NCBI GenBank assembly: GCA_965219095.1
Contig: CBDCMT010000001.1
Coordinates: forward strand, 480,001 to 544,000
DNA length: 64,000 nucleotides
Source: Bdellovibrionales bacterium
GTDB taxonomy: Bacteria; Bdellovibrionota; Bdellovibrionia; Bdellovibrionales; UBA1609
Reading direction: 5' to 3'
The position numbers were made by a program. The number at the start of each line of letters is the position of its first letter. The stretch's first letter is position 1. Positions 60,001 to 63,000 of this stretch are shown here, piece by piece.

Positions 60001-63000
60001 GAGAAATCATAAGGAATGAAATCAAGATTCTTAGCCTTCAAATCTAAATTTTCATCCCAACTAATAGAAGACAAATTCAAACTCTTCCAAGAAAATATCT
60101 TTTTAGCCTCATAGACAGAAGCCTTATCAAAACCTATGACCATATCTAAAGATTCTTTTATCAATTTCATTCTCTGTAAGATTAGTCCTGCAGAACCTGC
60201 TCTTATAAGGTCTACTTTACAATCACAGCTTTCCTCAAATATTTTAACTAAAACAGGCCCAGGTCCTGAAGAACTCTGAAAAGAAGAGTAAGTAAAAATT
60301 CGAAGCCTTGTTTTGTGAACTGTTTTTTTTTGAAACACAAAAATCAAGATCATCACTAATAGGAATAAGGCTAAAATAAGTGCATAAAAGATTTTTTGCT
60401 TCATAATTTAAAACCTAAAATAACAAAAAGCTTCTAAAAAAGGCACCAGCTTGACATATCGCAATAACTTTCTATTTTCTTTTTCATAGATGATTTATCC
60501 TCACAATCGCTATAAGAGATTTTGTTAGCCCATCAATGCTTTTTCCATTAATGCATTTTCTAAAAGTTCTTCTGCTTTAATCCTTGATTCATTTGTAAAT
60601 TCTATCCCTATAGTTTTCTTCTCCTTAGAAATCCAGCGAACAAGACCCTCTAATTTAGTGTTTTTAATAAGAAGGGATACCTTTTCATTTTCCTTGATGT
60701 TTTTATAAAAAGAGTTTTCACAAGAAAAAGCTAAGCCCCCTAAACTAAAAGAGTCAATTTGTCCTTGGAGAAGATGATAGAGGGAAGAAGATAAGTTAGC
60801 CTGCCATTGAATAGAAAAACGTTCAAATTTTCTTCTCTTATCAAAGACGGAACTTTTTAAAAAGAAGATCAGTAAAAGGGGTAAAAGTAGTAAGAAACTA
60901 ATGAGAAAAAATCTGACAGGCTGAAAAGAATTGAAAGGTCTTTTAAGAGAGTCTTTTGTTTGTCGGTAAGCAATTGTACCACAACCTCCTCCTAAAAATT
61001 GAGCTTGGGTCATAGGAAGATAAGATCCTTCATTGTAATCAGGAGCTTCACTGCTATAAAAGTCAGTAGAAAGATTATGAAAATTTTCTTTGCTTATTTT
61101 TTTAAAAAACCCCCCTGACTTTAAGAAAGCATCTAAAGTTGTGTTCTTTGTGGTTGATTGCTCAATAGCTTGATGAATTTGATAGCTAGAAAGGGAGGGT
61201 TCTTTCATGGATATGTAGGTTGCGAAAGCTGTAATAAAAGGTGTTGACATACTTGTTCCTGAAACAGGAACAAAAAGGTTATTTGGTGATGAGGTTAAAA
61301 TGTTCTCTCCTGGTGCAGCAAGTATCACTTTATTTTTTCCATAGTTAGAAAATCCAGAAAGTTGATTCGTTTTTCCGTTAATAGAGGCAACAGATATTAA
61401 ACTGGGAATAGGAAGTACCGCAGGATAAGATTCTCTTTTATCTAAGTTTAGAGTTTCATTACCAGAAGCTGCTGAAATAAAAACACCCTTCCTGTAAGCA
61501 TAGGCTAAGGCTTTATGTAAAGTGTGACTGTAAGAAAGACTTCCAAAAGATAAATTTAAAAAACTAGCCCCATGATCTACAGCATAATAAACAGCATTTG
61601 CTATAGAAGAGCTAGGAGCTTTACCATCCAATCTAAAAACTTTTAAAGGCATAATTTGAAAAGGCACAGATTTTACTTTTTCAGAAAAGATATTAACAAA
61701 GGAACCTAAAATAATGCCACTGACGTAGGTGCCATGTCCTCGGTTGTCTGTTATGTCATTGTTATGATCTACAAAATTCCATCCCTCCCTATCATCTATG
61801 AAACCGTTCTTATCATCATCAATACCGTTTTCAGAAATCTCTTTTTCATTTCTCCAAAGGACCTGGCTTTCTTGAAAGATTTTGTGCTCAGAATCAATCC
61901 CTGTATCAATGACAGCAATGATAGGCTTTTTATAAACCTGTGAAACATTTCTTTCAATAAAAACCTCTTCATCTTGTGATGAGGTTTTGAGAAGTTGACC
62001 GCTAAATTCATAGAAATCTTGAATGTCGGTCTGACTTAAAGTTTGAATGGAAAAAAGATTTAAGGAAGCTTTAACTTCTGAAAGACTATAAAGATAATCC
62101 CACTCAACATACTCTACTGAAGGATTATCAAGCAAATCTTCCCAATCAGCTTGAGATCTAGCTTTTTTGGTATGAATTTGTTTATGGAGTCTTTTTAAAC
62201 CTTGAGCTTTTAAAAGGCTCTTTTGTGTTTGTGCTTTGAATTGAACAATGATTTCACCTGTGTGAACCTGATCCGAAAAAAGACAGTAAGGTAAAGAGCA
62301 ATAAAGAAAACTCGTTATAAAAAATAACTTTAATAACTTTTTTTTCATTAGGACCTTTCTTTTATTATAATTCATGTTCTCCTTATTTCCATAGTTTTAA
62401 AAAAAAATGTTCCATACTGACACATCTCAATATGAAATTTTGAAACATTTTTTAACAAGGGCCATCTAGCTTTTGTTAAAAGGGGTTCATACCCATCTTC
62501 TTTCATTTTTTTGTGTTCTGAAGCTCTCACTTCGTCTAAAGCCTTATTGAGTCTTGCTACGATATGAAACCGATCTAATATATTCAAAGCTTGACTTGCC
62601 CTTTCCTTTATTACTTTTAAATAGGGCTTCCACATATCAGAACACACAAACTGTATATCTTTTGACTTCTCTCCTAGTAAATCAAAAAACTTGTTGAAAC
62701 TCTCCTCTGTTCTTTTTTCTCCTATCCATAGCAAACGAACACTTTCTTTGCTTATTTCATAGACTAAGGTGAGATACTGATGGTTCTTTTTCCATTGTAT
62801 TTCATCTACACCTATAGCTTGTATTCCCTTTAAAACCCTTTGTTTTAAACCATATTCTACGACCCATTCTACCGAAGCATTTTCCAACTGACAAAACTTA
62901 CAAGAAACTTTCCAAGACAGGTGACGACACCAGTCAGCTAAGTACTTCATGTAAAAAATTGTTAGGTTTTTCTTCCCATCTGCCCAAGGTAAATACTCAA

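Follow-up and report, generated by a model that had tools for sequence, protein, structure and literature searches.

A subtilase-PilZ fusion of the Bdellovibrionales with a candidate cysteine-containing sorting tag

The PilZ domains of Alg44 and BcsA regulate polysaccharide synthesis, that of Alg44 having an inside-out role in a membrane protein; among subtilases, the mycosins are anchored via a C-terminal helix. Control of periplasmic proteolysis by cytoplasmic sensing of c-di-GMP is known from LapD-LapG, a system of two proteins in which the cysteine protease LapG is bound, and thereby inhibited, by LapD (PMC3032545). In the MYXO-CTERM system, cleavage depends on a Cys, the protein is thought to be lipidated beforehand and display involves the T2SS; MXAN_5598 has been proposed as a precedent for an internal tag of this kind (PMC11980579).

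The combination of a subtilase with a PilZ domain is also in print. A survey from 2008 lists 'Subt-PilZ', NP_969350.1, of Bdellovibrio bacteriovorus (PMC2605481), which one supplement row equates with Bd2545 (PMC3627812). In the latter source the gene reaches an RPKM of 11,906 versus 4.3, the columns being read, after the title of the sheet, as attack phase and growth phase, and forms a one-gene transcript carrying a FliA site (PMC3627812). It was named elsewhere as a PilZ gene, whose level drops to about 0.6 at prey entry and to 0.10-0.13 in host-independent growth (PMC2797640). Bd2545 is an attack-phase-specific gene with a FliA promoter. In the available parts of these sources it is catalogued only, and its helix and Cys tail go unmentioned (PMC2605481, PMC2797640, PMC3627812); no functional study of Bd2545 was found in the open-access literature searched.

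An orthologue of Bd2545 is encoded in a window of 64,000 nucleotides from a Bdellovibrionales bacterium (GCA_965219095.1; all positions count along the window). The first-pass annotation had read this gene as an exported subtilisin with a cytoplasmic PilZ tail, and had proposed that c-di-GMP switches the protease on or off, a new kind of PilZ output. Its domain order is the same as in Bd2545, and the S8-PilZ architecture is not new: the prior listing in PilZ inventories that the annotation had suspected is that of 2008. Neither is c-di-GMP control of an extracytoplasmic protease a novelty, given LapD-LapG, for which the same direction of signalling, from cytoplasmic sensor to periplasmic proteolysis, applies as is proposed here. 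The protein does not belong to that system, which has a separate receptor and a cysteine protease: it is one chain with a PilZ domain and a serine protease, and a sequence relation was not found. The coordinates of the locus are given in Table 1.

Table 1. Features of the subtilase-PilZ gene and its upstream neighbours (window positions)
Feature	Position	Strand	Remarks
S8 subtilase - Cys tail - TM - PilZ gene	60525..62375	-	616 aa; orthologue of Bd2545
Signal peptide-like stretch, residues ~10-33	62277..62348	-	Basic N-region, hydrophobic 17-33; from hydropathy
Prodomain, residues ~36-100	62076..62270	-	PF22148 in most relatives; below detection in the window's copy
Peptidase_S8 domain, residues 149-411	61143..61931	-	Pfam, E 5.5e-43
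Catalytic D157	61905-61907	-
Catalytic H214	61734-61736	-
Oxyanion N306	61458-61460	-
Catalytic S375	61251-61253	-
Gly-Cys-Gly, residues 464-466	60978..60986	-	Contains invariant C465; signature of the candidate sorting tag
Single transmembrane helix, residues 489-507	60855..60911	-	Contains invariant P499; hydropathy, AlphaFold2 model, alignment
RxxxR motif, residues 515-519	60819..60833	-	Also in the basic cluster past the helix; alignment
Second PilZ motif, residues 542-547	60735..60752	-	Ser in the Asp/Asn position; alignment
PilZ domain, residues 514-608	60552..60836	-	Pfam, E 8.7e-8; 32.9 bits versus cut-off 22.5
ISL3-family element	62446..63294	-	~850 bp; 70 bp upstream of the gene, outside the system
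SurA/PpiD-like gene	63197..64000	-	316 aa versus ~500-550 in relatives; last ~32 codons IS-derived

The gene is a real fusion of a signal peptide, a prodomain, an intact subtilase, one membrane helix and a PilZ domain. Both Pfam domains scored above their cut-offs, and Pfam, hydropathy and a structural model bore out the domain limits, the single internal span and the signal peptide-like N-terminus given by the first-pass annotation. The AlphaFold2 model, built from 36 sequences (mean pLDDT 84), contained a prodomain, a subtilase core, a helix at 486-510 and a PilZ barrel; residues 462-484 had a pLDDT below 50. Foldseek retrieved subtilases with the whole model; with the model of the tail it retrieved PilZ domains in complex with c-di-GMP, that of Alg44 being one of the first. 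The best matches to the PilZ model were those of Alg44 (PDB 4RT0) and BcsA, both with c-di-GMP bound and, unlike the window's protein, involving neither a protease nor a sorting tag. Mycosin (TIGR03921) was the best NCBIfam match, with 118 bits versus a cut-off of 279 and over the catalytic domain only. The Asp-His-Ser triad and the oxyanion Asn were invariant in the 36-row alignment, and the subtilase catalytic motifs were found in 71 of 72 full-length family members; from these residues and the subtilisin fold with its prodomain, an intact subtilase is predicted. From hydropathy we infer an orientation with the protease outside and the PilZ domain, which makes up the roughly 110 residues past the helix, inside, as had been supposed.

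S8 and PilZ domains occurred together in 35 homologues (ranks 3-37) among the best 120 of 914, the same count as obtained earlier. Of 23 genomes sampled from the window's order, 21 yielded the fusion, against none of 98 others in the phylum. That the Cys-helix-PilZ part might be a mobile module carried by other enzymes was rejected: among the best 150 of 5356 representatives, the tail or S8 model was matched by 73, of which 59 were S8 proteins and 14 short fragments, and none of the 73 had another N-terminal domain. In B. bacteriovorus the family members have mgtE and a DUF502 gene as neighbours, in agreement with Bd2544 and with what flanks Bd2545, itself adjacent to mgtE. The window's copy shares about 30% identity with the Bdellovibrio members, from which it also differs in its placement after ppiD and in that a FliA site was not seen. 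The link to Bdellovibrio drawn by the first reading holds, with an attack-phase gene as the orthologue.

Conservation was counted over 108 sequences, 36 and 72 from two homologue searches and partly fragments. C465 was Cys in all 107 sequences that cover the site, and P499, R515 and R519 were each kept in 108/108. The RxxxR motif lies directly past the span, as annotated, and both its arginines are invariant while the neighbouring basic positions vary. The second PilZ motif had been described as one residue off; in the register set by alignment to MotI and VCA0042 there is no shift, D541 being conserved in just 5/108 sequences and the Asp/Asn position being S542. Residues at this position were Thr (59), Ser (38), Cys (6), Asn (3) and Asp (2), so that Thr, Ser or Cys occurs in 103 and a hydroxyl in 97 of the 108; of the 132 nearest unrelated PilZ domains, 36 were unreadable and 88 of the other 96 had Asp/Asn. 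Ser544 and Gly547 were kept in the window's copy. Given the PilZ fold and the RxxxR motif, binding of c-di-GMP is plausible, yet the classical (D/N)xSxxG motif is departed from family-wide.

The segments flanking the helix varied in length, with 24-51 residues from Cys to Pro and 14-28 from Pro to Arg, and such variation speaks against a helix that couples the two domains mechanically. In 42 of the 72 full-length members, the stretch from residue 41 up to the tail contained no further Cys; the tail Cys would thus not form a conserved intrachain disulfide. A quick tree built from 56 catalytic domains had PilZ-less proteins nested within PilZ-bearing groups in several positions, one of them supported at 99; these proteins kept the Cys, the prodomain and the triad. 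No PilZ domain was hidden in another frame for the two such proteins inspected. As far as this tree can tell, the PilZ domain was lost repeatedly, and the Cys tail was kept in every loss seen.

The invariant tail, which the first-pass annotation had missed, consists of Gly-Cys-Gly, a flexible spacer, one Pro-containing helix and a basic cluster. With a profile built on the Cys-helix segment, matches came from 137 of 151 genomes of the order, and a broader profile gave the same number; the union of both, after weak cases were checked and strong ones partly inspected, placed the tail in 140/151 genomes. Weak matches in three genomes (G152, G030, G103) had no Cys and were scored negative. Most genomes had 1-4 tail matches in this lossy search, and the source genome had one; the search missed the window's own PilZ, so absences from it are weak. 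The same tail closed 42 PilZ-less proteins fetched from the matches listed, with the Cys 35-68 residues from the end, the proteins having been selected by a model that includes the Cys. They fall into seven families without mutual BLAST similarity: S8 proteases (13), SCE4755 monooxygenase-like proteins (7), matrixins (6), proteins of 520-600 aa (6) and of 180-220 aa (6), C25/PorU-like giants (3) and a phospholipase C-like protein (1). The C25/PorU-like proteins are 2,500-3,500 aa long. An N-terminal hydrophobic stretch was found in 38 of the 42. As background, 40 ORFs of the source genome with a C-terminal anchor included one with the tail motif.

Haft described how a tripartite C-terminal sorting signal may be recognized (bioRxiv 2023.06.07.544157). 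By this standard, the signature motif, helix and basic cluster were found both in the family and in the tail proteins, and the tail was common to seven otherwise unrelated families with signal peptide-like N-termini. Placement at the extreme C-terminus was found in the 42 proteins and not in the window's protein, in which the PilZ domain follows the helix. The tail agrees at the sequence level with most of these criteria, and is probably a real sorting or lipidation signal. It is apparently undescribed: no CTERM-type sorting signal of Bdellovibrio was found in the literature searched, and the word Bdellovibrio is absent from the preprint as available without its supplements (bioRxiv 2023.06.07.544157).

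Like the tail, the MYXO-, JDVT-, Synerg- and CGP-CTERM signals comprise a Gly-rich motif, an invariant Cys, one helix, with a Pro in the case of Synerg-CTERM, and a basic cluster; their carriers are likewise unrelated proteins with signal peptides, and a T2SS is present (bioRxiv 2023.06.07.544157, PMC11980579). In the source genome, a T2SS secretin scored above its cut-off. The Bdellovibrionales tail differs from these signals in its longer spacer, its 1-4 clients per genome, the PilZ domain behind the tag in the commonest client, and a CPBP sortase that does not co-occur. None of the NCBIfam sorting models was matched by the tail, and the cut-offs of TIGR03901 (MYXO-CTERM) and NF033191 (JDVT-CTERM) were reached in 0/5 genomes each. 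The best NCBIfam match of the matrixins was a 'myxosortase-dependent metalloprotease' family, also under its cut-off. Membership in MYXO-CTERM or JDVT-CTERM was rejected, with the models under cut-off and the CPBP enzymes not tracking the tail.

Partner enzymes were sought among several groups. No CPBP protease was found in the source genome; MrtJ-like matches occurred in 48 of 151 genomes, none above the cut-off, and the order's own CPBP subfamily in 26/151, with a CPBP gene adjoining the protease in one genome only (G040). A myxosortase as partner was rejected, a cognate CPBP enzyme not being present in every tag-bearing genome. Exosortase was found in 0/5 genomes, and a second rhomboid, present in 129/151, fits poorly, missing from at least 13 tail-bearing ones. 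No cleaving enzyme among the CPBP, exosortase and rhomboid candidates co-occurred with the tail, so that the tail may be lipidated without being cleaved.

Of the 151 genomes, 135 yielded a second Lgt, which has a Gly-Cys-Cys (GCC) motif and whose gene follows ileS-lspA. It was missing in 9 of 11 tail-less versus 7 of 140 tail-bearing genomes, an association confounded by genome reduction, most tail-less genomes being small and related and kin not independent. Most of the seven tail-bearing exceptions have another extra Lgt, and one tail-less genome (G026) has a divergent GCC-type copy. Among the 14 genomes of at most 2.2 Mb, tail and GCC-type Lgt were both present in five and both absent in nine, a complete agreement that depends on the threshold used for this Lgt (E 1e-35). 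The Cys-rich second Lgt is the best candidate for a partner, and a candidate only.

Prey entry by B. bacteriovorus depends on the forkhead cyclase DgcB, whose proposed targets include hydrolases, without names (PMC3271064). The one GGDEF protein found in the source genome (94% complete) is a DgcB-like FHA-GGDEF protein with canonical motifs, in agreement with the prey-entry context suggested by the first-pass annotation; one further weak PilZ was also found. A GGDEF gene was kept in 30/30 genomes, with or without the family's PilZ, and the idea that PilZ loss tracks GGDEF loss was rejected on this ground. Of 44 family genes, 18 had a FliA-like site upstream, where base shuffles gave 2.7 (maximum 6 in 60), and a sigma-70 scan remained at chance level (10 versus 9.3). 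Upstream of the window's gene no FliA-like site was seen, the best match being 8/12; the FliA gene itself, present in 22/23 genomes, is uninformative.

We propose, tentatively, that the PilZ domain behind the sorting tag makes processing or surface display of the protease dependent on c-di-GMP. The exported attack-phase subtilase would bear a Cys-containing tripartite tag with PilZ fused behind it, and the messenger would decide, in a largely one-way manner, where and when the protease is deployed rather than its catalytic rate. The Cys tail is common to unrelated secreted families and kept after PilZ loss, so the sensor may control the sorting of the protease. Comparison of sequences has shown the domain order, the triad, the invariant Cys/Pro/Arg/Arg, the shared tail and the loss of PilZ with the tail kept; the surface location, lipidation, cleavage and nucleotide binding of the protein are proposals that could well prove wrong. 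Several points speak against the explanation: the Ser/Thr for Asp/Asn family-wide, the failure to find a cleaving enzyme among the candidates, the few clients per genome and the exceptions to the Lgt link. In a wider form, which we consider doubtful, the Bdellovibrionales would have their own Cys sorting pathway without myxosortase, probably with a dedicated Lgt paralogue, in which PilZ gates lipidation, cleavage and display of a predation protease. The near-universal client of that pathway would be the attack-phase subtilase with PilZ, and the prey-entry c-di-GMP signal its input; a sorting tag gated by a second messenger would then arm a predation protease on prey contact. No sorting signal under second-messenger control was met in the literature searched, the search not being aimed at that point alone.

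The protein may instead stay whole in the inner membrane, its PilZ domain docking to a cytoplasmic partner or the invasion pole, with or without c-di-GMP, and its Cys serving uncleaved as a lipid anchor or interchain disulfide. The failure to find a cleaving enzyme that co-occurs with the tail, the flexible linkers, which suit tethering, and the altered second motif, which fits a protein-interaction PilZ, favour such a tether; the PilZ-less clients end exactly as tripartite sorting signals do, and both arginines are invariant at the RxxxR spacing among variable basic neighbours, which makes it rather unlikely. It would be improbable that c-di-GMP clusters the chains via PilZ, crowding leading to prodomain removal in trans and one-way activation at the membrane: the conserved prodomain and the closest fold match, the c-di-GMP-bound PilZ of Alg44, agree with this, but the shared Cys tail is left unexplained and PilZ-less forms retain prodomain and triad. 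Reversible switching of the periplasmic active site through the helix, the model of the first-pass annotation, draws on a sensor and an enzyme kept together in one chain in most sampled genomes of the order and on the invariant RxxxR. It fares slightly worse and appears quite improbable, considering that variable, low-confidence linkers flank the helix, that PilZ was repeatedly lost with the enzyme intact, and that subtilases are usually activated through prodomain removal.

Two further readings were weighed against that of c-di-GMP-dependent sorting. The PilZ domain could be decaying, or the gene silenced, in the window's lineage, leaving a relic of the family design. The window's clade is a long, divergent branch in the catalytic-domain tree; its copy has no PDG loop, C-terminal Trp or FliA-like site and has the IS close upstream, and one genome (G023) has a degenerate PilZ. 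The reading frame is nevertheless intact, a public-run contig matches the window without differences over 59280-62330, and C465, P499, R515, R519, S544 and G547 are all retained. The contig joins 62437 to 63303 via 111 other bases, which indicates that an IS-free allele exists, and we regard decay as very unlikely. Lastly, the change from Asp to Ser/Thr might retune the PilZ to 3'3'-cGAMP, as in Hypr GGDEF cyclases such as Bd0367; both that retuning substitution and the use of cGAMP as a signal by B. bacteriovorus have been documented (PMC9140294). The hydroxyl kept in most of the family would suit this, but the one cyclase of the source genome has the canonical Asp, as do 12/12 readable GGDEF motifs of 21 loci (9 unreadable), PilZ-bearing genomes included. 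The cGAMP reading is unsupported by these motifs and extremely improbable.

A protease that is conserved, expressed at a very high level in the attack phase and equipped with a PilZ domain of its own is a direct candidate target of DgcB. B. bacteriovorus is a genetically tractable and harmless host for Bd2545, and the mechanism would be better tested there, the window's clade being divergent. The shared tail predicts an order-wide set of surface proteins that includes the monooxygenase-like proteins, the matrixins and the giant C25 proteins; it also predicts a fifth Cys-type sorting signal, one without the known enzyme, and bears on the enzyme that lipidates such tags.

The ISL3 element that the first reading had placed upstream of the gene was confirmed there; some 80-90 near-full copies occur in the source genome. 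It truncates the ppiD-like gene, which in several relatives adjoins the protease gene on its upstream side, and it may have displaced the promoter of the protease gene. The true start of the protease gene may be Met10 at 62348: AAGGAG, resembling a ribosome site, lies just 3 nt ahead of Met1, and AAGG lies 5 nt ahead of Met10.

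The Cys tail, the candidate sorting tag at the C-terminus, was found at the end of secreted Bdellovibrionales proteins of 2,500-3,500 aa which contain a C25/PorU-like domain (loci L119, L191 and L192). In several genomes (loci L120, L121 and L125) the gene for a tail-bearing protein of 540-600 aa is convergent with a gene encoding approximately 800 aa, whose product contains a FecR domain in L120, and is preceded by response-regulator-like genes.

A CPBP subfamily of 190-240 aa (loci L169-L181), for which no curated name was found, gave matches in 26 of the 151 genomes, about 15 of them strong; at these loci, no tail-bearing neighbour of the CPBP genes was detected except in genome G040. 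A second rhomboid, characterized by a large insert, is present in 129/151 genomes, mostly as a single copy, and sits behind one gene common to both loci examined (L212 and L210).

Tail-bearing S8 proteins without PilZ are encoded upstream of secA in genomes outside the Bdellovibrionales, one of them labelled Myxococcota (loci L018 and L025). Since these proteins nevertheless branch inside the protease family in the tree, they may have been acquired by transfer. An unrelated subtilase, P0040, shows a C-terminal Gly-Gly-Gly-Cys, spacer, helix and basic tail, lacking the Pro. At the C-terminus of a 513-aa protein lies another type of tail, which looks conserved and resembles CFI-box-CTERM.

Coordinates of the features described (window positions unless a locus is named)
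Feature	Position	Remark
Giant C25/PorU-like protein	L119:1240-11856	Cys-tailed
Giant C25/PorU-like protein	L191:1908-9524	Cys-tailed
Giant C25/PorU-like protein	L192:2396-9925	Cys-tailed
Second rhomboid	L212:1420-2424	
Second rhomboid	L210:1054-1992	
513-aa protein	L225:37-1578	
Transporter genes (permease and ATPase probable)	55612-57658; 59391-60404	thiamine-type ABC
353-aa ORF	57991-59052	among transporter genes; no family match
High-depth stretch	59272-59313	intergenic, ~35 bp
ISL3 copy	62446-63294	cuts SurA/PpiD-like gene
SurA/PpiD-like gene	63197-64000	shortened to 316 aa by ISL3 copy

The contig offset of 512000 given in the first-pass annotation was incorrect: the window lies at C2:480001-544000, and window and residue numbers are not altered. 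Upstream from the protease, three runs of one study contained an ISL3-free allele at the SurA/PpiD-like gene site; the same runs showed a 12-base difference at window position 63397. Downstream, on the same strand, the protease gene is followed by a gene for a thiamine-type ABC transporter binding protein, together with probable permease and ATPase genes. The high-depth stretch, with a read depth of about 20-fold and loose ends at either side, reads as either a short dispersed repeat or an IS end.
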